Positions 4,558-36,911 of a DNA stretch of 39,217 bases are shown piece after piece. Positions within the stretch are counted from its first letter, which is position 1, and each line of letters begins with the position of its first letter. The stretch lies in the IMG/VR virus record IMGVR_UViG_2684623171_000001. One strand, given 5' to 3'. The notes beneath the pieces were generated by a model. The model worked only from the letters and a program-made list of their open reading frames with translations. It did not search any database and was not told where the DNA came from. The position numbers and the translations under genes were made by a program. The stretch is from a virus (Duplodnaviria > Heunggongvirae > Uroviricota > Caudoviricetes).

Positions 4558-4839
4558 GTGAAAAAAAATCTCATTGCATGGGCGTGGTCGAGTGGTCTTA
4601 TTGAGTTTGGTTACGTCCTGCCGGAAGGTGCATTGCCGATAGTTGCCGGAAAGCCTGCCACGGTACGGCATGTGATTGAGGTTATGGCGCGTCATGGACG
4701 TGATGAACAGGAGCAGTTACTGGTTCCGGGGATACCGGAAGCGGTGACGGAGGAAGAAGCCTTTAATGCCATGATTCGGTTCTGCCGTGAGGTCAGACGC
4801 CGGGTCAGTTATCCAAACAGAACGAGGACCAGAGGGTGA
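4558..4839 (+). CDS. Hypothetical early-region protein
   Basis: 93-aa ORF, start 2 nt after the previous stop; its stop overlaps the next GTG start (GTGA). Confidence 0.4.
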   Translation: MKKNLIAWAWSSGLIEFGYVLPEGALPIVAGKPATVRHVIEVMARHGRDEQEQLLVPGIPEAVTEEEAFNAMIRFCREVRRRVSYPNRTRTRG

Positions 4840-7643: not shown

Positions 7644-8195
7644 ATGATGAAATTACAACCCATGGGGAGAAAAGGCCGTGCACCCGCTCATGTTCGCGCA
7701 TGGACACCTGAAGAAGATGCGCTGCTGATTGCGCTTTATCCATCCACCCCGGTTAAGGATATTGCTGTCAGGATAAAAAGAAGTTTCTGGGGTGTACATA
7801 ACCGGATTGTTTTATTACGCGGTACTTACCCGGAGTTGCTCAAATGCAAACGCCTCAGATTTAAACCTGATGAAGATAAATTTATCCGAAAAAATGCCAG
7901 GACGATGACCGGTAAGCAAATAGGAGAATATCTGGGGCGAGACCGGGATTCTGTCCACAATCGGGCGCGATATATTGGCGTAAGCATGAAAAAATACGGA
8001 GAATTACTGCCTTTTACCCGCATACCTGACGATGATGTTCATCTTATTCGTGAATTACGGGATGCTGAATCACCACGGCGTCTTACCTTTAGGGAAATCG
8101 GCGAGAAATTTGAATTATCCGAGGGCACGGTGAGTTTTATTTATCACCGTCGTCGGACTGCCGAAGATGTTGTATTACGGGAGTTAACGACATGA
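7644..8195 (+). CDS. Hypothetical DNA-binding protein with three tandem HTH-like repeats
   Basis: 183 aa; three ~45-aa repeats of the pattern P-E/D-E/D-D..LI...G....SV.NR; the last resembles a sigma-70 region 4 / LuxR-type HTH; first gene of an AT-richer block. Confidence 0.45.
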   Translation: MMKLQPMGRKGRAPAHVRAWTPEEDALLIALYPSTPVKDIAVRIKRSFWGVHNRIVLLRGTYPELLKCKRLRFKPDEDKFIRKNARTMTGKQIGEYLGRDRDSVHNRARYIGVSMKKYGELLPFTRIPDDDVHLIRELRDAESPRRLTFREIGEKFELSEGTVSFIYHRRRTAEDVVLRELTT

Positions 8196-8377
8196 TAAGG
8201 AGACTTGTTTTTTTCGCAATTATCGTTCCTGTGTGGGGGGTTGGTTTTATATTTGCGGTTACAGGAAATCTGTCCATGATGCCGGATATATGGTTCTTTA
8301 TCAGGATGTCGCTCTTCCTGTTTATTATGAATCTTCTTATCGACATATATATCCGTATTACTGGAAAACATAAATGA
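8192..8377 (+). CDS. Small hydrophobic (membrane) protein
   Basis: 61 aa, almost entirely hydrophobic, AT-rich codons; overlaps the neighbouring stop and start. Confidence 0.35.
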   Translation: MIRRLVFFAIIVPVWGVGFIFAVTGNLSMMPDIWFFIRMSLFLFIMNLLIDIYIRITGKHK

Positions 8378-8748
8378 GAAAAATCACGACCTTGTCAGAG
8401 TTACAGGAGATGAATATGAGTATTGAATTAAGATCGTCTTATGAATATCGTAAAATTCTCATCGCCGGAGGCATGAAACCGGAAGATGCAGAAAAAATCG
8501 TTTCTTTTATGGATAAAGAATGTGACAAACGGGATATGCCAGAAATTATTATGGATGACATGATTCTGGATTCAGCCGTGGCGTTAAGTCCGTTATGGAT
8601 TGTGCATTCTCTTGCTGAAATTGCCAAAGGCACCGATAAACAGGCAGCTGTTGCTGCCCTTCAGACGCTTAATGAAATGCGTATATCTCCACGCCCGACA
8701 TTAATACATATGATTCTGTCCAGCATGGAGGATAAAGCAAATGAATAG
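8374..8748 (+). CDS. Hypothetical protein
   Basis: 124-aa ORF in the AT-rich block; no motif recognised. Confidence 0.4.
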   Translation: MRKITTLSELQEMNMSIELRSSYEYRKILIAGGMKPEDAEKIVSFMDKECDKRDMPEIIMDDMILDSAVALSPLWIVHSLAEIAKGTDKQAAVAALQTLNEMRISPRPTLIHMILSSMEDKANE

Positions 8749-8938
8749 TCTACCCGCTGGATGGGCGCGGCCACTAATGGCCAGGAAGCATCATTTTTTT
8801 AAAACAGGCGAAAATATCAGTATATGTGGACGGTGGTTATATCTGGCTCATAATCGCGAGCCGGATACATTTGAAAGCCCTGATGACTGTGCCGAATGCC
8901 GCAGAAGAGTGAATAAGGAGAAAGATAATGGACAATAG
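8741..8938 (+). CDS. Small cysteine-containing protein, possible zinc ribbon
   Basis: 65 aa with C..C...CxxC spacing (ICGRW....DCAEC). Confidence 0.35.
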   Translation: MNSLPAGWARPLMARKHHFFKTGENISICGRWLYLAHNREPDTFESPDDCAECRRRVNKEKDNGQ

Positions 8939-9224
8939 TTCTCTGTTGTTCTGGTGCTTATATATCACATCCTTTTTCGGCGCATTTGTTATTACCCGGT
9001 GGTTATGTCGAAAAATCATCTGCTTTTTTGATAAAAGACATCCGGTTGAACGGGCGGCTGATGCGCTCATTCAGCAGGCCATTGTGTTATATAGCGGTGA
9101 GTTTTTCTGCCGGATAACAACCAGAGATGGCTGGCACATAATGATTATTCCACCAACACACCATGCCCGGTGGGATGAGGCAGAAAAGGCTTTCCATGTC
9201 CGTAAAAAGGTAAATACGGTATGA
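8928..9224 (+). CDS. Hypothetical protein
   Basis: 98-aa ORF overlapping its neighbours by a few nt. Confidence 0.35.
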   Translation: MDNSSLLFWCLYITSFFGAFVITRWLCRKIICFFDKRHPVERAADALIQQAIVLYSGEFFCRITTRDGWHIMIIPPTHHARWDEAEKAFHVRKKVNTV

Positions 9225-9730
9225 GAGGAAAACTGATATCCGCCATTCATGTGGCAAAGCGCGAGCTTGCCCTGGATGATGAGACTTATACATCCGCGCT
9301 GCTGGCAGCCACCGGCAAAACCAGCTGCCGGGATATGTCACCGGATGAGTTATCCCGCGTGCTGGATGTTTTCAAAAAACGCGGTTTTAAAGTGCGTCAG
9401 AACCCGGTTAACCGGGCCTTAAAACCGGGTACGGTGACCGCCAAAATTCGCGCCATCTGGAAGGTGATGCACCGGCAGGGCTTTATCACCGATGGTGCGG
9501 AAACCGCCCTTAACCGCTGGGTGAAATCGCAGACGGCCGCGCAGAACGGCGGCGAAGGTGTGGCAAACTGGCAGTGGCTGGAGCAACACCCCGCCCTGGC
9601 CTCAGATGTGCTGGAGCGTCTCAAGCGATGGCACCGCCGCAAAATGCTGGCCGCGATGGGAATGCCCGAACGCACGCTGATGGGGTATGACGCCGTTTGC
9701 AGGCAGTATGAAAAATCACTTCCCCGTTAA
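9221..9730 (+). CDS. gemA: GemA-like (Mu gp16 family) protein
   Basis: 169 aa, last gene before the early terminator; position matches Mu gemA; family call from memory only. Confidence 0.55.
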   Translation: MRGKLISAIHVAKRELALDDETYTSALLAATGKTSCRDMSPDELSRVLDVFKKRGFKVRQNPVNRALKPGTVTAKIRAIWKVMHRQGFITDGAETALNRWVKSQTAAQNGGEGVANWQWLEQHPALASDVLERLKRWHRRKMLAAMGMPERTLMGYDAVCRQYEKSLPR

Positions 9731-9734
9731 CCCC

Positions 9735-9766
9735 AAATCCCGCCACAACGCGGGATTTTTATTTTA
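9735..9766 (+). terminator. Rho-independent terminator at the end of the early operon
   Basis: Perfect 9-bp stem AAATCCCGC / GCGGGATTT with a 6-nt loop, followed by TTATTTTAA. Confidence 0.65.
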
Positions 9767-9799
9767 AACTTACCGGGAACGCGAGAACCGGAGGCTGAT

Positions 9800-10225
9800 A
9801 TGGCAGAAACTCAGATGAGCATGTTTGGTGGTGACAGTGAGCAACTGCACGCCCTTATCGACCGCCTTGATGACATCCCTGATGATGTTCTCAAAAAGAA
9901 CTGGCCGCGGACCCTGTCAGAACTGGTTGAAGTCACCGGCGCAGAACTTCAGCGTCAGGGGATTGAGCCGGTACTGGCCGGTAAACTGGCACGCAAGGTG
10001 GCTGCGGCTCAGGCAGCCTATATGGGCGGACGGGGTTATTACCTGCCGGTCGGGGAATCTCTCTTTGCCGAGCTGCGAAACAATGAGATATTTTCGCGCT
10101 GGGACCGGGGCGAGAAAATTGAATCCCTTCGCCGCCATTACCGGATGTCAGAAACCCAGATTTATACCGTCATACGCGAACAGCGCCGTCTGCATCTGGC
10201 AAGAACGCAACCGCCACTTTTCTGA
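9800..10225 (+). CDS. Mor/C-family transcriptional activator
   Basis: 141 aa; C-terminal region GGRGYYLPVGESLFAELRNNEIFSRWDRGEKIESLRRHYRMSETQIYTVIREQRR fits the Mor/C pattern as I recall it; GGAGG RBS. Confidence 0.7.
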   Translation: MAETQMSMFGGDSEQLHALIDRLDDIPDDVLKKNWPRTLSELVEVTGAELQRQGIEPVLAGKLARKVAAAQAAYMGGRGYYLPVGESLFAELRNNEIFSRWDRGEKIESLRRHYRMSETQIYTVIREQRRLHLARTQPPLF

Positions 10226-10296
10226 TATTCCGCAAAGCCTGCCGCCTCTCCTTCACCGTTACGCTGACTCAGAGAACATCATGAGACAGCGTAACA

Positions 10297-10797
10297 ATGC
10301 CAAAACTCCCCGCACCACTGCGTAAAAAGCTGATTGCCCTTGTTCTGGCCGGTGCCGGGACGTTCACGATTGCCACGCATTACACCGGTTACTGGGAAGG
10401 GAAAGAAAACTCCACGTATATCGATCCCACCGGTACACCCACCATCTGTTACGGCCATACCGGCCCGGATGTGAAACCGGGTATGACCCTGACAGATGAA
10501 GAATGCCTGGAACTACTGGAAAAGGACATGAAATGGGCCTTTGCGGCCATTGATCGGCGTGTTCAGGTGCCGCTTACCCGTGGTCAGACGGTGGCGCTGG
10601 CTTCGTGGATCTTCTGGGCCGGTGAAACGAACTTTCGCAACTCCACGCTTCTGCGCCTGATCAATGCCGGGCAGATGCCCGCGTCCTGTAAGCAGTATAT
10701 CCGCTGGATTTATTCAAAGGGGGTGAAACTCCCCGGCCTTGAGGCCCGCCGTTCGGCGGATGAATGGTTATGTCGCTACGACTTGCCGAAAGTCTGA
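10297..10797 (+). CDS. lys: Endolysin, T4-type lysozyme family, with an N-terminal signal-anchor-release (SAR) domain
   Basis: Catalytic spacing E-x8-D-x5-T (EGKENSTYIDPTGTPT); N-terminal RKK followed by the Gly/Ala-rich weakly hydrophobic LIALVLAGAGTFTIATHY. Confidence 0.75.
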   Translation: MPKLPAPLRKKLIALVLAGAGTFTIATHYTGYWEGKENSTYIDPTGTPTICYGHTGPDVKPGMTLTDEECLELLEKDMKWAFAAIDRRVQVPLTRGQTVALASWIFWAGETNFRNSTLLRLINAGQMPASCKQYIRWIYSKGVKLPGLEARRSADEWLCRYDLPKV

Positions 10798-10870
10798 ACC
10801 GCTTCTGGCGACCGCTCATGATAGCGCTGCTGTGTGCGGTACTGCTGTTACGGGGTGTCCTGTGGCTGCG

Positions 10871-11260
10871 GTGAATAATGCCTTACCGGCCCTGATTGCC
10901 GGGGCGTGCATGGCGGCGCTGGGGATTATCGCTGTACTGGTTGCCGCTATATGGGGAATGCACCAGAAGACGCAGCGCCTTGAAGACAATAATCAGGTGC
11001 TTGTGCGTGAGCGGGATGAGGCGCGTCAGGTGCTGGCAAATCAGCAGCACACCCTGCAACTCATTTCACAAATCAGTGAGGCGGCCACGAATGAAAAACA
11101 ACAGAACATTCAGCACAGCGAGGGGCAGCAGAGCGTTGTCCGCCGGTCGCTGGCAGCAGTGCCTGCGGCCTCTGCCCCTGTTCCTGATGATGTGGCTGAT
11201 CGGGTGCGCCGGGCCGTCTGTGAAATACGTGCCTGTGAAGCCGGTGCCGATCCCCGCTGA
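10871..11260 (+). CDS. Rz-like i-spanin candidate
   Basis: GTG start at 10871; N-terminal TM helix (LIAGACMAALGIIAVLVAAIW) then a charged, Gln-rich coiled-coil-like region; lies after the endolysin. Confidence 0.45.
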   Translation: MNNALPALIAGACMAALGIIAVLVAAIWGMHQKTQRLEDNNQVLVRERDEARQVLANQQHTLQLISQISEAATNEKQQNIQHSEGQQSVVRRSLAAVPAASAPVPDDVADRVRRAVCEIRACEAGADPR

Positions 11261-11462
11261 ATGGCTGGCTGACTGCCTGGTCCCTCCTGCGCCGGAGCCG
11301 TTCACGTTTGGGGCATCGGTCACTTACAACCTGCAACTGCTGGCGGTGATCAAGAACTGCAACGTGGACAAGGCCAGTATTCGTCGTCTGGAGACGCGGC
11401 GACAACATGAATTTACTGATATGGCCGGAACGCCTGCTGTTCCGGCAGGAAAAACGAAGTAA
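11091..11462 (+). CDS. Rz1-like o-spanin candidate (lipoprotein), overlapping the i-spanin
   Basis: Internal Met at 11091 in the +1 frame; lipobox-like LIGC after a hydrophobic segment; proline-rich mature region. Confidence 0.4.
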   Translation: MKNNRTFSTARGSRALSAGRWQQCLRPLPLFLMMWLIGCAGPSVKYVPVKPVPIPAEWLADCLVPPAPEPFTFGASVTYNLQLLAVIKNCNVDKASIRRLETRRQHEFTDMAGTPAVPAGKTK

Positions 11463-11471
11463 GGAAAAGGT

Positions 11472-11699
11472 ATGGATGATTCAGATCGTGCTCAGGCTGT
11501 GATGGAGCGGGGATCAGAACGCGCCCTTTGTAACCGGCTGACACGTAAGCGCCAGGCAGTGGATACGCCGGGCAGACGTGTCTGCGCGGACTGTGGCGGA
11601 GAGATCCCCGCCGCACGTCTTGTTGCTGTGCCGGATGCCATCCGTTGTGTGAACTGCCAGAACATCATGGAGGCCCGTCATGTGGGTCAGCATCGTTAA
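11472..11699 (+). CDS. TraR/DksA-family C4 zinc-finger protein
   Basis: 75 aa with CADCGGEIP...RCVNCQ (CxxC-x17-CxxC), typical of TraR-like phage proteins. Confidence 0.6.
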   Translation: MDDSDRAQAVMERGSERALCNRLTRKRQAVDTPGRRVCADCGGEIPAARLVAVPDAIRCVNCQNIMEARHVGQHR

Positions 11700-12859: not shown

Positions 12860-14523
12860 TGAATAACGCCGAAGAACTCTCACCCTTACTGACGAATACC
12901 GTCTCCACCCGCAAAATTGATCTGGCCGGTGAAAAAGCCCTGCTGGGCGTGGATGTGCCGGACAGCCTTGATTTGCCCGGTGATATGCCGGTGTTTCTGG
13001 ATTATCAGGCCCGCTGGTTTGAGGATGAAAGCGAGGTCTGCATCGCGGAAAAATCCCGCCGCACCGGGCTTACCTGGGCGGAAGCCGGGCGTAACGTCAT
13101 TACCGCTGCAAAACCGAAGCGGCGTGGTGGCCGCAATGTGTTTTATGTGGGGTCAAAGCAGGAGATGGCGCTGGAATATATTTCTGCCTGTGCACTGTTC
13201 TCCCGTGCCTTTAACCAGCTGGCAGATGCTGATGTGTATGAGCAGACCTTCTGGGATCGGGATAAAAAAGAAGAAATTCTGACCTACATGATCCGCTTTC
13301 CGAACAGTGGATTCAAAATTCAGGCACTGTCTTCCCGTCCGTCAAACCTGCGCGGCCTTCAGGGGGATGTGGTGATTGATGAAGCCGCGTTCCACGAGTC
13401 ACTGGATGAGCTTCTCAAGGCGGCAATGGCGCTTACCATGTGGGGCGCGCGCGTGCGTATTATCTCCACGCATAACGGCGTCGATAATCTGTTTAATCAG
13501 TACATTCAGGAAGCCCGCGAAGGGCGCAAGGATTACAGCGTCCACCGCATTACCCTGGATGATGCCATTGCGGACGGGCTGTACCGTCGTATCTGTTATG
13601 TCACCGGCCGCGAATGGTCACCGGAAAGCGAGCAGAAGTGGCGTGATGATCTCTACAAAAACGCCCCGACCCGTGAGGATGCCGACGAGGAATACGGCTG
13701 TATCCCGAAAAAATCCGGCGGTGCCTATATTCCTCACGCGCTTATTGAAATGGCGATGCTCCGCGACATCCCGATTCTGACGTTTGAAGCCCCGGACGAC
13801 TTCATCAGCCGTGCCGCATGGCTGCGTGAATCGGAAGTTTTAACCTGGTGTGAAGAACATTTAAAACCGCTTTTAGAGGCGTTAAATCCCCGTTCCCGCT
13901 TCAGCTTCGGGGAAGACTTTGCCCGCACCGGTGACCTGTCCTGCTTTGTGCTGCTGGAAATCACTGAATCCCTGGCAAAACGCGAGGTGTTTCGCGTGGA
14001 GCTGCGCAACCTGCCGTATGCCCAGCAGGAGCAGGTGATGATGTACATCCTGACCCGCGTTCCGGCGCTGGTCGGTGCGGCGTTCGACGCCACCGGTAAC
14101 GGCGGCTATCTGGCCGAAGCCGCGCTGCTGGCCTTTGGCCCGGACATCATCGACTGCGTGATGTTATCGCCGAAGTGGTACGGTGAGTGGATGCCAAAAC
14201 TGAAGGCCGAGTTTGAGGATCAGAATATCCTCGTCGCCCGCCATCAGACCACGCTTGATGATTTGCGCCATGTGAAGGTGGTGAACGGTATCCCGCAAAT
14301 CGACAAGGGGCGTACGAAGGACCAGAACGCAACGGCTGTGAACGCCCGCCGCCATGGTGATTTTGCCGTGGCGCTCTGTATGGCAAACCGGGCGTCATAC
14401 ATGGAGGGCTTCATCCTGGATGAATCAGCCTGTCAGGCGCTGCCGGAGCGGTCGCGGGCAATGGAGGGCGGTTATCGTGATGACGATGAGGCATATCATG
14501 AATTTGATCGGGGGTGCTGGTAG
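12859..14523 (+). CDS. Terminase large subunit (Mu gp28-like)
   Basis: 554 aa, position and size match Mu gp28; start overlaps the gp27 stop. Confidence 0.7.
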   Translation: MNNAEELSPLLTNTVSTRKIDLAGEKALLGVDVPDSLDLPGDMPVFLDYQARWFEDESEVCIAEKSRRTGLTWAEAGRNVITAAKPKRRGGRNVFYVGSKQEMALEYISACALFSRAFNQLADADVYEQTFWDRDKKEEILTYMIRFPNSGFKIQALSSRPSNLRGLQGDVVIDEAAFHESLDELLKAAMALTMWGARVRIISTHNGVDNLFNQYIQEAREGRKDYSVHRITLDDAIADGLYRRICYVTGREWSPESEQKWRDDLYKNAPTREDADEEYGCIPKKSGGAYIPHALIEMAMLRDIPILTFEAPDDFISRAAWLRESEVLTWCEEHLKPLLEALNPRSRFSFGEDFARTGDLSCFVLLEITESLAKREVFRVELRNLPYAQQEQVMMYILTRVPALVGAAFDATGNGGYLAEAALLAFGPDIIDCVMLSPKWYGEWMPKLKAEFEDQNILVARHQTTLDDLRHVKVVNGIPQIDKGRTKDQNATAVNARRHGDFAVALCMANRASYMEGFILDESACQALPERSRAMEGGYRDDDEAYHEFDRGCW

Positions 14524-17421: not shown

Positions 17422-17539
17422 GCCGGTGACGGGGGTCGAACCCGCATAAACATATGACCCCTGAGGGTTTATGCCGCTTTACCAGTTAAGAGTACACCGG
17501 CCTGTATTTATTTTAATCAGATAGTTTTAAGGAGGCAAC

Positions 17540-18013: not shown

Positions 18014-18189
18014 TTGTTTAAGGTATGCAAATGCATTACCTTACCCCCTTCAGGCGCGTGTCGTGATTTTCTAACCTGTATTTAACGGGCTTTAAAATCT
18101 GCGTGAAGCGCCTTTGTATTTTTCCCCTGGAAGCACTTCCTGAAATCCCGCAAAACCCGCCCTGAAAATTCCCGGCCTATGCTGCCGGA

Positions 18190-19314
18190 ATGAAGACGAA
18201 AAACACGCCCAAACTTGCTTATGCCATTCTGAATGCCATCAGCCTGTCCGCAGACGGGGACGGTGACTGGTGTCAGATCATGCCAGCCGGTCGGGTAAAG
18301 GCCCGTGACGGTCGCCCGGAAAAACCGGCGGAAGGCTGGCTGATCAACCATGCAGCCGTTGAGCGCATGGTCTCCCGTGTTGTGGCGCTCAATCAGCCGG
18401 TGAAAATTGACTACAACCACCAGACCCTGATTGAGGGACATCCGGCACCGGCTGCCGGTTTTGTGATGGCCTCACCGGAGAATTTTCGCTTCAGTGAAGA
18501 GCGAGGTTTCGAGGTGCGCCCGAAGTGGAACCCTCCGGCCCTTGAACATCTGCGTAATAACGAATTCCCCTGGTTTTCACCGGTGATTGGCTATGACGAG
18601 AACACCGGCGAACCTGTCGAACTTCGGATGCTGGCTATTACCGGTGACCCCGGTCTGACCGGCATGAATCCTGTCGCCGCGCTGTCGGCGGATGACCTTT
18701 ATAACGCCTTAAACCCTCCTTTAAAGGATACCTCCATGAATGAGCAATTACGCCAGTTGCTGACGGCGCTCGGTCTGACCGTGGCTGACGGTGACGAATT
18801 TACGCCGGAGCTGGGCACGGCGGCGCTGTCTGCCCTCACCGGGATCAAAACCCGTGCGGATGCACACGACAACCTGAAAACACAGGTCGCCAGTCTGTCG
18901 GCAGAGCTGGAAACCGCAAAAGGCACACCGGCTGGCGGCATTATTGATCTGACGAAATACGTGCCCGTTGAAACGTATAACGCCCTGCGTACCGAATACG
19001 TTGCGCTGTCGGCGCAGCACGGCAGCACCACGCTGGAGCAGGTGCTGGACAAGGCTGAATCCGAAGGGCGCATCTTCAAAAGCGAACGCGGCTATCTGGA
19101 ACAACTGGGCGGGCAGATTGGCGTTGCGGCACTTTCTGCACAGCTTGACGCCCGCCAGCCGGTTGCGGCCCTGACCTCTCTTCAGACCGACACCGTGACC
19201 GTGCCGGATAAAAAGACTGCCACCGCTGCGCTGTCGGCTGAAGATATCGCGGCCGCCAAACTGCTGGGTAAAACCGAAGCCGAGTTCCTGAAAATGAAAG
19301 AGGAAATGCAATAA
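18190..19314 (+). CDS. I: Head protease/scaffold protein (Mu I-like)
   Basis: 374 aa immediately before the major head gene; Ala-rich C-terminal scaffold-like half. Confidence 0.65.
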   Translation: MKTKNTPKLAYAILNAISLSADGDGDWCQIMPAGRVKARDGRPEKPAEGWLINHAAVERMVSRVVALNQPVKIDYNHQTLIEGHPAPAAGFVMASPENFRFSEERGFEVRPKWNPPALEHLRNNEFPWFSPVIGYDENTGEPVELRMLAITGDPGLTGMNPVAALSADDLYNALNPPLKDTSMNEQLRQLLTALGLTVADGDEFTPELGTAALSALTGIKTRADAHDNLKTQVASLSAELETAKGTPAGGIIDLTKYVPVETYNALRTEYVALSAQHGSTTLEQVLDKAESEGRIFKSERGYLEQLGGQIGVAALSAQLDARQPVAALTSLQTDTVTVPDKKTATAALSAEDIAAAKLLGKTEAEFLKMKEEMQ

Positions 19315-26476: not shown

Positions 26477-27812
26477 CGGTCGTGGTGCGTTCCGTGGTGT
26501 GCCGTTCCTCGTCTGGCGTGAGCAGCGCGAACGTGGCGGGCGAAACATTGTCCGTCGGGAATATCCGTTACGGGAAACCGGTGGTGCAGACGATCTGGGA
26601 CCTAAACTGGCTGAATTTACGTTCAGTGTACTTGTGATGGGGGATGATGTTCAGACACAGCGAAATCGTCTGCGTGATGCCCTTCGTGCTCCCGGTGCCG
26701 GGGAGCTGCTTCACCCGGATTACGGCACGTTAAATGTGCTGATAAACAGCTTTGAAAGTCGTTATAACGCTGCTGAACAGGGCGTGGTTGAGTTCACCAT
26801 TAATGTCACGCCGGTAAGTGATGATACCGCACCTGCTGTCACACAGGACACGGCCGCCATTCTGGAGCAGAAGAGTACCACCGCGCTCGGGAAGGTTTTT
26901 GAAACCCTGGAAGCGGGCTGGACGGTGATTTCTGACGGAATGCACGATGTCCAGGCAATGACCGAAACCATCAGCGATAAGGTGTCCGCCCTGGAAAATG
27001 CCGTTTCCGGCATGGGGATTGTACAGGATATCAGTGCCTTTACTGCCACGTTCACGGCGCTGAAAGGGAATGCCACGGCATTACTGACAGCACCTTCCCG
27101 CATGGCCTCATCTTTTGCGGGGCTTTTCAGTGCCCTGATCACCCTGCCATCGCTGCCGTCACTGTCTTCAGGAGGCCTGAATACCCGGCCCGGTGGCAGT
27201 ATCGGCCGGACGACATCCGCCTTCTCTCAGGGAATGCCGCAACTGTACAGGACATTATCTTCCCTGCGTTACGTGCTGGATGAGCAGGATAATCCGCAGA
27301 CTCTCATCGGTCTGACACCGGCAGCACAAAAGAATATTCGTCTGATACGGGCGGTAATGCAGAGTGCTGCCGTGGTGGCCCAGGCACAGACCGTGGGAAA
27401 ACTGCTGGATCAGGTTCTCAGTCAGGAAACCCTGCCGGACAGTGACGCAGCCCACCGTACCTGGCCTGTCTGGCTGGAAAGTTCAGTTGATCTTCAGCGC
27501 ATTAACCGTGACTTAAGCGAAGCGCTCGAACGGCAGGTGATGACACTGTCCGGGCAGGGGTATACCGCCACGGCGCTGACGCTTCGTGATGCCAGACTGG
27601 CACTGACAGAGGATCTGAATACACGGGGAGTTCAGCTACCCGGTGCAACAGTAGTGACTGTACGTACCACCGAGCCTGCACTGGTGACCCTGTACCGTGC
27701 CACCGGGAACAGTACCGGCTGGCAACGTTTTGTGCGCCGTAACGGTATTGTTGATCCGCTGTTCATTCCCGGAGGCCATTCAGTGGAGGTGATTAGTGAG
27801 CAGCAGGGTTGA
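26442..27812 (+). CDS. N: DNA circulation protein (Mu N-like); start may be the Met at 26463
   Basis: 456 aa after the tape measure; GGAGGG precedes the in-frame ATG at 26463. Confidence 0.6.
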   Translation: MSGTEGIMASGDGRGAFRGVPFLVWREQRERGGRNIVRREYPLRETGGADDLGPKLAEFTFSVLVMGDDVQTQRNRLRDALRAPGAGELLHPDYGTLNVLINSFESRYNAAEQGVVEFTINVTPVSDDTAPAVTQDTAAILEQKSTTALGKVFETLEAGWTVISDGMHDVQAMTETISDKVSALENAVSGMGIVQDISAFTATFTALKGNATALLTAPSRMASSFAGLFSALITLPSLPSLSSGGLNTRPGGSIGRTTSAFSQGMPQLYRTLSSLRYVLDEQDNPQTLIGLTPAAQKNIRLIRAVMQSAAVVAQAQTVGKLLDQVLSQETLPDSDAAHRTWPVWLESSVDLQRINRDLSEALERQVMTLSGQGYTATALTLRDARLALTEDLNTRGVQLPGATVVTVRTTEPALVTLYRATGNSTGWQRFVRRNGIVDPLFIPGGHSVEVISEQQG

Positions 27813-34219: not shown

Positions 34220-36259
34220 ATGACGTCCAAATGGGTTCAACTATCATCAATGCCCGGAAACTTTACTGTTAAAGTTTCCGGTGGTACAGCGGCATTTCTT
34301 GAGGCTCCCTTTCCTCCGGCCGAAACAAAAGGAGGAATGACATTTGCTGACTGTCTCATCAGTTTTAATACACGGGATTGCCTGTGGGTAAGGCCAGTAT
34401 CCGGTGATCCGAGTGTGGAAATTACCGGAGCGGGTATTGGTGCGGTCATTCCGTTAAGTGCTGATGTTGCCGGTACTGCTGAACCGTCAGACTGGGATAA
34501 TGCTGAAACACATACCCGTCCGTCAGGAAATGAAACTGCTTCCAGCTCCCCTTCCTGGTATTACGTGGTGGTTCTTGCTGGTCAGTCAAACGGTATGGCT
34601 TACGGTGAAGGTCTGCCACTGCCGGAGACATATGACCGCCCCGAACCGCGTATTATGCAGTTAGCCCGTCGCAGTACAGTCACGCCGGGAGGTAAAGCCT
34701 GTCAGTATAACGACATCATTCTGGCCGACCACTGTCTGCATGATGTGCAGGATATGAGTGGAAAAAATCACCCGAAAGCGGATGTGGCTAAAGGGCAATA
34801 TGGCACCGTGGGTCAGGGGCTTCACATTGCCAAAAAACTGCTGCCGTTTATTCCGGCAGATGCGGGGATTCTGCTGGTTCCCTGCTGCCGTGGTGGTTCT
34901 GCATTCACGGCGGGTGCTGACGGCACGTACAGTGACAGCACGGGTGCTTCAGAGGACTCAGCCCGCTGGGGTGTGGATAAGCCGCTGTATAAGGACTTAA
35001 TCAGCCGGACAAAAGCGGCACTGGCGAAGAACCCGAAAAACCGCCTGCTTGCTGTGGTGTGGATGCAGGGCGAGTTTGATATTGATGCGAAGCCGACGGA
35101 GCATTCCGCGCTGTTTCTGGCGATGGTGGAAAAATTCCGCGCAGACCTGGCTGAACAGGCGGAACAGTGTACCGGTGGCAGTGCTGCTGGCGTTCCGTGG
35201 ATTTGTGGCGATACCACGTATTTCTGGAAACAGAAAAATGAACCGGCATACCAGGCAATCTATGGCGGCTACAAAAACAAAACAGATAAAAACATTCATT
35301 TCGTTCCATTAATGACAGATGAAAATGACGCGAATGTACCCACCAACAATCCGGCAGAAGACCCGGATATTGAATCCATTGGTTATTACGGCTCAACGTG
35401 GCGTAACAGTGCCGCCACCTGGACATCTGCGGACCGGGCCAGCCATTTCAGTTCATGGGCACGTCGTGGGATTATTTCCGACCGTCTGGCCACGGCAGTT
35501 CTGACTCATGCGGGGCGAACCACAGTAAAAGCCGATGTTCCATCTTCTGAAACTGAAGCACCAGTGCCGTCACCTTCAGAAACTGAAGCAGTAACCACAA
35601 CACTGCTGTCTTATCGTGTCAGTGAGTCAGAAGGAAATCTGAAAGCCCAGGGCTGGGAGCCGGCTGGCGGTAAAGCTGAAATTATCAGTGATGCAGGAGG
35701 CACAGGTGGTAAGGCAATGAAACTGACCAAGGAAACAGGTAAATCATCCTGGTATCTGGATCATGATGCCGGTACTGGTGCTGAACTGCTGAAAAATGGT
35801 GGTTTAATCAGTTGTCGTTTTAAAGTACCTGGCGACCTGGTGGCAAACCAGTATGTCATGGGGCTTTACTGGCCGGTTTCCTCTCTGCCGCAGGGTGTCA
35901 CCCTGACAGGGGATGCAGGGAATAATCTGCTGGCATCGTTCTACATCCAGACAGACGCAAAAGACCTGAATGTGATGTACCACAATGCAAAAGTGGCAAC
36001 AAATAACCAGAAACTGGGAACCTTTGGTGCATTTGATAATGAATGGCATACGCTGGCCTTCCGTTTTGCAGGAAATAACAGCCTTCAGGTTATTCCGGTT
36101 ATTGATGGTCAGGATGGTGCCGCGTTTACCCTGACGCAGTCACCAGTAGGAACTTTCCCGGTGGACAAACTCCGCGTAACGGATATCACAAAAAATGCAA
36201 CTTACCCGGTGCTGATTGACAGCATTGTGGTGGAAGTGAAAAAAGCGGTAACAGAATAA
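34220..36259 (+). CDS. SASA/SGNH-type sialate O-acetylesterase-like protein with unknown N-terminal domain and lectin-like C-terminal domain (NanS-p-like prophage esterase)
   Basis: 679 aa; GQSN catalytic motif (VVLAGQSNGMAYGEG) and downstream WMQGEFD; duplicated SETEA linker (PSSETEAPVPSPSETEAV); C-terminal ~220 aa have beta-rich, lectin-like composition; has no counterpart in Mu between gin and mom. Confidence 0.65.
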   Translation: MTSKWVQLSSMPGNFTVKVSGGTAAFLEAPFPPAETKGGMTFADCLISFNTRDCLWVRPVSGDPSVEITGAGIGAVIPLSADVAGTAEPSDWDNAETHTRPSGNETASSSPSWYYVVVLAGQSNGMAYGEGLPLPETYDRPEPRIMQLARRSTVTPGGKACQYNDIILADHCLHDVQDMSGKNHPKADVAKGQYGTVGQGLHIAKKLLPFIPADAGILLVPCCRGGSAFTAGADGTYSDSTGASEDSARWGVDKPLYKDLISRTKAALAKNPKNRLLAVVWMQGEFDIDAKPTEHSALFLAMVEKFRADLAEQAEQCTGGSAAGVPWICGDTTYFWKQKNEPAYQAIYGGYKNKTDKNIHFVPLMTDENDANVPTNNPAEDPDIESIGYYGSTWRNSAATWTSADRASHFSSWARRGIISDRLATAVLTHAGRTTVKADVPSSETEAPVPSPSETEAVTTTLLSYRVSESEGNLKAQGWEPAGGKAEIISDAGGTGGKAMKLTKETGKSSWYLDHDAGTGAELLKNGGLISCRFKVPGDLVANQYVMGLYWPVSSLPQGVTLTGDAGNNLLASFYIQTDAKDLNVMYHNAKVATNNQKLGTFGAFDNEWHTLAFRFAGNNSLQVIPVIDGQDGAAFTLTQSPVGTFPVDKLRVTDITKNATYPVLIDSIVVEVKKAVTE

Positions 36260-36405
36260 AAAAATCCCGCCGGTCATGATATGGCTGGCGGGAGCTACCT
36301 AACCCATAAAGGAAAATAAAAATACTCCCGAAGGAGTGGTTATCAGTCGCTTCGATGTTTTTACCCGATAACGAATTATGTAGTCAATATCAAAGGTAAG
36401 GTTAT

Positions 36406-36588
36406 ATGACATTCGTTCATACAATGCTGCTTTATTTCTGCGCTGTGGTCAGTGCGTTATATCTGGTGAGCGGTGGTTATAAGGTCATCAGAAATTATAT
36501 TCGCCGTAAAATTGATGATGCGGCAGCTGAAAAACTCAGTAAAACAGCACAGGCACCGTCATCCCCAAACGACCCGACCCCGCTCTGA
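36406..36588 (+). CDS. Small membrane protein
   Basis: 60 aa; N-terminal TM helix (MLLYFCAVVSALYLVSGG); AAGGTAAGG RBS. Confidence 0.35.
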   Translation: MTFVHTMLLYFCAVVSALYLVSGGYKVIRNYIRRKIDDAAAEKLSKTAQAPSSPNDPTPL

Positions 36589-36623
36589 TAACGGGGCAAT
36601 ATACCTGCAAAAGGAGAATATTC

Positions 36624-36869
36624 ATGCCAGAGATTAAAGGCACGGTTACTGAAGAGCTTGTCAAACAGGCACTTTATTCTGAAGAAGTGAACCGCGTGCT
36701 GAAGGCGCAGGTTCGCAAGGATTTTGAGGCACAAATCGACGCATATGTTGATGAAGTGCTGGCCCGAATGGTTGGCCGTTCTCCGGCTGAAAACAGCACG
36801 GAAAATGATCCTCAACCCGTAGAGCAACCAGAGCCGGTTCAGCCCGGAACTGACGGTACTATGATGTAA
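36624..36869 (+). CDS. Small acidic hypothetical protein
   Basis: 81 aa; strong AAGGAG RBS; followed by a hairpin terminator. Confidence 0.4.
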   Translation: MPEIKGTVTEELVKQALYSEEVNRVLKAQVRKDFEAQIDAYVDEVLARMVGRSPAENSTENDPQPVEQPEPVQPGTDGTMM

Positions 36870-36879
36870 CAATACCGAC

Positions 36880-36911
36880 CGGCAGGTTTCCCTGCCGGGT
36901 GAGTTTGTTAA
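36880..36911 (+). terminator. Hairpin terminator after the two small genes
   Basis: 8-bp stem CCGGCAGG / CCTGCCGG with a 4-nt loop, followed by GTGAGTTTGTT. Confidence 0.4.

Follow-up and report, generated by a model that had tools for sequence, protein, structure and literature searches.

The early–middle–late relay of phage Mu is the textbook picture of gene control in transposable phages. A sequence-only reading of a Mu-like phage genome, the 39,217-nucleotide IMG/VR record IMGVR_UViG_2684623171_000001 (hereafter the window, meaning the whole stretch that was analysed), held that this phage has a single activator of the Mor/C family where Mu has two, Mor and C, and that its gene is placed after the early terminator and directly before lys. 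From this arrangement, it suggested either a simplified cascade in which one activator does both jobs or early-to-late coupling by terminator read-through. Because it is encoded downstream of the terminator, the activator of the window can be made only once transcription has gone past the terminator. The question raised by the locus is how such a switch could be thrown for the first time.

The prophage and its activator locus

The window represents a complete E. coli prophage of the Mu-like kind, similar to Sp18, with the gene order c, ner, A, B, gam, and gemA, followed by the lysis, head, and tail genes, gin, com, and mom. Mor and the middle-operon genes gp18–20 are absent, and all structural genes are open frames. 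A dcuC-like host gene appears to be the insertion site, since the right end of the prophage adjoins a truncated C4-dicarboxylate carrier gene of the DcuC family (38396–39217, − strand). The segment 9221–10797 is found at 100% identity in the chromosomes of E. coli O157:H7 and other STEC. The prophage is of the type of Sp18, a Mu-like element of O157:H7 strain Sakai that has been judged intact (PMC2669165). At a coverage of at least 80%, the gemA–activator–lys stretch occurs in 231 of the 5426 complete genomes of E. coli examined, in up to four copies per genome. In addition, two Stx-converting phages carry an inserted Mu-like phage with a target duplication, an identical activator, and a 98.5–99% match to window positions 8300–11500, which indicates that the phage is probably active.

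The early operon ends with gemA (9221–9730, + strand; gp16 family; Pfam GemA PF06252, E = 3.2e-30; 'gp16 family protein' in RefSeq), whose stop codon TAA occupies 9728–9730. It is followed by an intrinsic terminator, the activator gene, and, after a gap of 71 nt, the endolysin gene lys, the first late gene (10297–10797, + strand; Pfam Phage_lysozyme PF00959, E = 6.3e-37). The order proposed from the sequence is thus borne out on both sides of the activator gene, given that the lysozyme gene follows at this short distance and that the hairpin is the only strong + strand terminator closing the early operon. The coordinates first given to the activator, 9735–10225, are right for the end, as the stop codon ends at 10225, and wrong for the start: the terminator begins at 9735, whereas the gene begins with an ATG at 9800, preceded by the Shine–Dalgarno sequence GGAGG (9790–9794, + strand). 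No terminator was found by the terminator scan between the activator stop and lys (10226–10296), so transcripts of the activator gene would continue into lys. In this, the window lineage differs from Mu, which has a terminator between C and lys (10383–10406 in the Mu record), and from many relatives that likewise have a hairpin between the activator stop and the lys promoter, Plys.

A single activator resembling Mu C

Members of the Mor/C family characteristically bind a dyad centred near −43.5 of σ70 promoters that lack a −35 element and activate these promoters. To count the family's representatives in the window, a profile HMM was trained on 146 sequences, namely the window protein, the two Mu activators, and 143 family representatives recovered by exhaustive HMMER searching. 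All 906 stop-to-stop ORFs of 25 aa or more in the six frames of the window were then scanned with it, the filters being switched off. One match was obtained, at 163 bits, and the runner-up scored 3.5 bits (E = 3.3). Applied to Mu as a positive control, the same HMM recovered the two known activators, Mor at 115 bits and C at 161 bits. Pfam revealed no other Mor domain in 30 of the ORFs of the window. At the profile level, therefore, the prophage has one Mor/C activator; the second paralog among the unknown ORFs that, according to the sequence-only reading, would speak against its claim was not turned up by the profile search, and the claim stands. The three-tier arrangement of Muvirus, in which Mor and C are split by a middle operon, is not that of the window, which gives a single match in a scan that gives two in the Mu control.

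The activator gene (9800–10225, + strand) encodes a protein of 141 aa, labelled 'Mor transcription activator family protein' in RefSeq, which matches Pfam Mor (PF08765) over profile positions 2–107 of 107 (E = 2.8e-32; 111.3 bits vs a cut-off of 24.9). It is 39% identical to Mu C over 137 residues (105 bits) and 27% identical to Mu Mor (52 bits), and it matches the PDB chains of both, C (9l0x) with E = 1e-26 and Mor (1rr7) with E = 2e-9. A neighbour-joining tree of the 146 sequences, the comparison against Mor and C by which the sequence-only reading had proposed to check its view, places the protein together with Mu C in a clade of seven members, and 139 of the 143 family representatives score nearer C than Mor. 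The likeness to Mu C (gp21; PDB 9l0x and 9vw8) extends from the family to the length (141 vs 140 aa), the position before lys, and the invariant residues of the β-linker. The linker of the window protein, GGRGYYLPVG, has G76, G77, Y81, P83, and G85, which correspond to G70, G71, Y75, P77, and G79 in C numbering, and G76, Y81, and P83 are invariant in an alignment of 40 sequences.

Proteins of this family are about 100–150 aa long, acidic in their N-terminal and basic in their C-terminal half (PMC2582627). The window activator has a net charge of −4 in residues 1–70 and +4 in residues 71–141, and the corresponding values for Mu C are −3 and +5. The family consensus also includes two clamp-binding motifs, an N-terminal Qx[DE][LM]F and a C-terminal QPDLF, both of which have recently been shown to be necessary for MuC function (PMC12867686). 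The window protein has near-consensus candidates for both: the N-terminal one, QMSMF (residues 5–9), carries S instead of D/E, which fits the general motif QL[SD]LF, and the C-terminal one, QPPLF (residues 137–141), carries P instead of D.

Judged by its sequence, the activator is a C orthologue rather than a Mor/C hybrid: it is closer to C than to Mor, and its gene ends just 5′ of lys with a Plys-like site between them. A Mor orthologue would be the last early gene, overlapping gemA and lying 5′ of the terminator, as Mor itself is encoded upstream of the terminator in Mu; the window activator starts 69 nt after gemA and lies 3′ of the terminator. The surroundings of C differ too, as C is preceded in Mu by Mor, the promoter Pm, and gp18–20, whereas the window activator comes directly after the early terminator.

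Single-activator layouts among relatives

Relatives of the activator at 44–100% identity were examined in 80 IMG/VR loci, each with up to 10 kb of flanking sequence per side. One Mor/C ORF is present in 78 of them. In locus L056, a second, partial Mor-like ORF (8462–8683; 83 bits) lies about 1.4 kb 3′ of the activator. A tblastn search with Mu Mor against 50,697 phage records gave a similar picture, with a family match in 80 records, 66 with a single match and 14 with two. The two-match records all belong to Muvirus, namely Mu, D108, SfMu, the Yersinia vB_YpM phages, PhiR68_1, and Mu_3F6, and among the matches listed, the Vibrio, Pseudomonas, Burkholderia, Klebsiella, Pasteurella, Shewanella, and Pseudoalteromonas records have one each. 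Like the window, SuMu, 3927AP2, and phiMhaMu2, together with BcepMu and the Mu-like phages of Vibrio, Pseudomonas, and Shewanella, carry one Mor/C gene near gemA, have lys next, and lack a middle operon; for the first three, lys directly after a single activator has already been published (PMC4553209). Thus, the single-activator layout is a common design of Mu-like phages, largely ordinary and already in the literature, and the unusualness implied by the sequence-only reading is not upheld.

What can be distinguished within this design is the position of the terminator. Among 60 distinct upstream regions, 14 have an activator overlapping gemA, 32 have the hairpin or its right arm upstream of the activator, and 14 have neither. 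In the first class, the overlap with gemA is 8–14 nt, which makes the activator a true early gene, and in several members a terminator comes just after it. The window belongs to the class of 32, in which the terminator comes first and in which a bootstrapping problem arises because the sole activator is encoded behind it. An activator overlapping gemA is also seen in L087 (Klebsiella phage Kp4866-3; 3474–3890). It is of the Mor type, 62% identical to Mu Mor, and no second family member was found in the 3.5 kb to its left or right, which shows that a sole activator can be Mor-like as well.

The terminator between gemA and the activator gene

The intrinsic terminator (9735–9765, + strand), located by the terminator scan, consists of the stem AAATCCCGC/GCGGGATTT (9735–9758) followed by TTATTTT. 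By sequence, it has the G+C-rich hairpin and U-tract expected of such an element, with a 9-bp stem, a 6-nt loop (CACAAC), and the tail TTTTTATTTT; its predicted fold of −13.5 kcal/mol (z = −4.8) is equalled by none of 200 shuffles. Only 4 nt lie between the gemA stop codon and the hairpin. In relatives, the distance from stop codon to hairpin is 3–12 nt in 20 of 22 distinct cases, whatever gene precedes. Terminators situated a few bp past a translated gene are reported to be almost completely repressed in E. coli by the terminating ribosome (PMC4824070). Appreciable read-through would therefore be expected at a hairpin so close to the gemA stop.

The hairpin, TCCCGC–N6–GCGGGA with a T-run, or its right arm alone, is what defines the 32 terminator-first regions. 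Where measured in related loci, it lies 59–76 nt 5′ of the activator ATG, and in loci where additional genes set gemA and the activator apart, the module is found next to the activator. Two variants without the left arm were seen among the relatives. In L023, an IS4-type transposase (8595–9932) is inserted exactly in the hairpin and the left arm is replaced, for which reason this phage may be defective. In L034, an antisense gene of 111 aa (9317–9652) stands in place of the left arm, and GCCACAGCGCGGGATTTTT and the −10 element are kept while the box is absent. The 9-mer AAATCCCGC was also tried as a site marker and rejected: it has six copies in the window, of which those at 13051 and 24458 are inside coding sequence and that at 36262 belongs to a hairpin behind a cargo gene, so it is not a clean marker.

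Candidate late promoters

The four late promoters of Mu (AF083977) consist of the box ATAA(T/C)C(C/A)C, 20 nt, and then the −10 element. The lys-upstream regions of 12 related lineages obey the same box–N20–(−10) rule, and a rigid matrix of 55 columns was derived from those of Mu and 11 relatives, with the window lineage excluded. On the window, this matrix reaches 20.6 bits at 10215–10269, compared with a shuffle maximum of 14.8. The candidate Plys at this position (10230–10265, + strand) comprises the box CCGCAAAGCCTGCC (10230–10243; core GCAAAGCC), a 20-nt spacer, and the −10 element TACGCT (10260–10265), which is the geometry seen upstream of lys in Mu. A candidate PI with the same pattern and spacing (18148–18183, + strand) comprises the box CCGCAAAACCCGCC (18148–18161), 20 nt, and TATGCT (18178–18183), or, in core form, GCAAAACC, N20, and TATGCT; the box–N20–(−10) arrangement also precedes I in Mu and about 12 related lineages. 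The box itself differs from that of Mu, being CCGCAAAnCC as inferred for the window.

The 14-mer CCGCAAANCCYGCC is common to the candidate Plys and PI. With at most one mismatch, it is matched four times in the window, where 0.31 matches would be expected, and not one shuffle in 100 attains this number; these figures are optimistic because the 14-mer was defined after the sites had been seen. The combined pattern xCAAAnCC–N18–22–TAnnnT occurs only three times on both strands, at 9733, 10232, and 18150, that is, before the activator, lys, and I. Together with the 14-mer matches, this distribution is the main support for self-activation. One of the single-mismatch copies, CCGGAAAGCCTGCC (4646–4659), is inside the early gene 4558–4839; no −10 element was found at the expected distance from it, and it may be a chance occurrence or an internal binding site.

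The evidence is uneven across methods and promoters. A shorter rigid matrix places Plys at chance level, and a two-block model misses it; with generic late-promoter matrices from Mu and relatives, nothing above shuffle level was obtained for PI, PP, Pmom, or the activator promoter. A weak and tentative PP box, CAGGAAACCCTGCC (27423–27436, + strand), with two mismatches to the 14-mer, is located inside gene N, 373 nt 5′ of P, and thus corresponds in position to Mu PP, which is likewise inside N; no convincing −10 element was found at N20 from it. Of the Mor/C-type sites that the sequence-only reading had suggested seeking before lys, I, the baseplate genes, and com, those of lys and I therefore have candidates. 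For P there is a weak one, and Pmom was not found by the matrices.

The −10 element of the candidate PI ends 6 nt before the ATG of gene I (protease/scaffold) at 18190, so its transcript would be leaderless or nearly so. A distance of 6–7 nt from the −10 element (CACACT or TAAGCT) to the ATG recurs in relatives, for example, in L035, L036, L038, L048, and L074, and the gene I leaders of Mu and of the L055/L079 types are about 30 nt long.

A candidate promoter within the terminator

The first of the three sites mentioned above is a late-promoter-type box, CCCCAAATCCCGCC (9731–9744, + strand), which has one mismatch to the 14-mer and overlaps the left arm of the hairpin. Two −10 elements may be proposed behind it on the + strand, TATTTT (9760–9765), 19 nt after the box core, and TAAACT (9765–9770), 24 nt after it. 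All related lineages have TATAAT, TATACT, TATATT, or TATAGT 7–9 nt 3′ of the right arm, and although the leaders 3′ of the hairpin are unalignable among lineages, this −10 element is conserved. The −10 of the window is the weakest among them. A −35 element or a proper extended −10 is absent in every lineage compared, and a σ70 consensus scan found no promoter in 9200–9800, its matches overall being fewer than in shuffles.

A parallel exists in Mu, whose record places the terminator t9.2 (9179–9200) inside the promoter Pm (9163–9233). In both phages, a hairpin lies a few nt past the last early stop codon, and a T-run and a promoter without a −35 element are superimposed on it. Pm needs a protein of the Mor/C family, as is proposed for the window promoter, and its −10 element is about 8–10 nt farther from the hairpin than that of the window. 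A strictly Pm-like geometry, with the dyad at −43.5, was tried for the window and rejected, as +1 would fall inside the Shine–Dalgarno sequence and no −10 element would be present. Relatives of 84% identity have TGTAAT at the Pm-like spacing, whereas the window does not.

Self-activation is not settled by these features, because the spacing from box to −10 at the activator promoter (19 or 24 nt in the window, 22–24 nt in relatives) departs from the 20 nt that the candidate Plys, the candidate PI, and the four late promoters of Mu all keep strictly. From lineage to lineage, the left arm of the hairpin hardly varies, whereas the late boxes differ, and co-variation of the activator-promoter box with the Plys box of its own lineage (within vs between lineages) is not significant (p = 0.10). 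Conservation of the arm alone requires no binding protein, since CCCGC/GCGGG stems are common in ordinary terminators. The most fitting reading of the sequence is a terminator overlapped by a promoter of the activator type, not a plain barrier. The suggestion of a simplified cascade coupled by read-through survives as a reasonable mechanism, given a hairpin 4 nt past the stop codon and the repression reported for such terminators in E. coli (PMC4824070); the view of the terminator as a simple barrier does not survive, as a promoter-like module overlaps it.

A proposed two-tier cascade and its alternatives

The reading to which we give slightly more credence than doubt is a two-tier cascade, early to late, in which the first activator comes from read-through and then probably turns on its own promoter as well as the late ones. 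Early transcripts from Pe would run through gemA and meet the hairpin just past its stop codon. A terminating ribosome there would cover the left arm, so incomplete termination is expected, and a trickle of read-through could make the first activator. The terminator would itself hold a promoter lacking a −35 element, its box located in the left arm, its spacer provided by the T-run, and its −10 element coming just after. The activator would probably stimulate this promoter, a positive feedback that would replace the job done by Mor at Pm, and would then switch on Plys, PI, and further late promoters. The presence of both clamp-binding motifs, near consensus, suggests that it probably uses the sliding clamp. 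Transcripts started at the activator promoter would run on into lys.

Alternatively, the terminator might insulate the activator fully, and an activator-independent σ70 promoter, with TAAACT or TATTTT as its −10 element and a T-rich spacer, might drive the gene, the timing then coming from weak basal expression and from the need for sliding clamps loaded by phage replication. We consider this unlikely, although several observations agree with it: the −10 elements of the relatives are at or near consensus, with TATAAT in three lineages, the spacing of the box is unlike that of late promoters, and the clamp-binding motifs would serve this scheme as well. L034, which keeps GCCACAGCGCGGGATTTTT and the −10 element beside its antisense gene without left arm or box, is a further point in its favour, and L023 also lacks the left arm, in this case by the IS insertion that may have made it defective. 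However, no lineage has a −35 element or a proper extended −10, the weakest −10 of all is that of the window, and full insulation is hard to expect from a hairpin so close to a stop codon, in view of the repression reported in E. coli (PMC4824070). Moreover, a constitutive promoter would be active in lysogens, and in the window, where no terminator precedes lys, this is hard to square with stable lysogeny, which favours an activator-dependent promoter.

The two-tier cascade could also be mistaken if three tiers are kept and a non-homologous early protein does the job of Mor, be it GemA, the gp11-like protein, or a 183-aa early protein (7644–8195), a proposal that we regard as quite improbable. 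The 183-aa protein contains three HTH-like repeats, two Myb-like and one resembling σ70 region 4, and belongs to phrog_323 ('transcriptional regulator, D5-like'), which would suit such a role, but it is present in only 6 of the 20 related loci with the hairpin module and has been rejected as a Mor substitute on this ground. GemA is encoded upstream of the activator in every locus that covers the early region; the only early proteins that track the module are Ner, A, B, the gp11-like protein, and GemA, a pattern confounded by phylogeny. Finally, decay from Mu by deletion of mor and the middle operon, with loss of the lytic programme, would explain why the stretch from gemA to the C-type gene lacks the mor-to-gp20 segment of Mu (about 1.2 kb), but is hardly credible for a layout found in 32 of 60 distinct upstream regions with activators at 44–100% identity, in a phage that has up to four copies per genome, has newly inserted into Stx phages with target duplication, and has all its structural genes open, Sp18 having been judged intact (PMC2669165).

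Implications for the Mor/C pair

The counts above indicate that the three-tier relay is a peculiarity of one genus and that most Mu-like phages use one activator, which for E. coli means a single-activator prophage in about 4% of complete genomes, including many O157 strains. The new points are modest: the distinction between two classes by the place of the terminator, the closeness of that terminator to terminating ribosomes, the conserved −10 element embedded in it, and the late-type box in the arm of the hairpin. They leave the understanding of the Mor/C protein family unchanged. The manner in which the switch is first thrown in the terminator-first subgroup nevertheless bears on the origin of Mor and C by subfunctionalisation of a self-activating ancestor, and the comparison suggests that the Mu pair arose by duplication of a read-through-primed, self-amplifying activator. 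In its fullest form, the proposal that the ribosome-weakened early terminator is at the same time a self-activated promoter, that the one-activator feedback switch is ancestral, and that the Mor-to-C relay is derived from it by duplication is tentative and more open to doubt than to belief; if it holds, Mor would have kept the terminator promoter and C the late promoters, as a division of labour.

Other features of the prophage

Neither a tRNA nor an Rfam family was found in the window. Between genes F and G, which overlap in Mu, the window has a non-coding gap of 118 nt (17422–17539), in which ARAGORN and Rfam found nothing; it holds an inverted repeat, CATAAAC...GTTTATG, and a stretch, GGGGTCGAACCC, that resembles a tRNA T-arm. 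Just 3′ of the lysis genes, a 75-aa zinc-finger protein of the TraR/DksA type is encoded (11472–11699). Proteins of this type bind in the secondary channel of RNA polymerase, and the 75-aa protein may modulate late transcription. Its homologues are present in both single-activator classes (10 of 20 and 12 of 13 loci). A cargo block, which Mu does not have, is located between gin and com/mom (34220–37372). It encodes a 679-aa protein with a SASA sialate-acetylesterase domain and DUF6645, small DUF1378 and DUF826 proteins, and two minus-strand ORFs, and the 679-aa gene is followed at 36262 by the hairpin AAAAAATCCCGCC...GGCGGGA.
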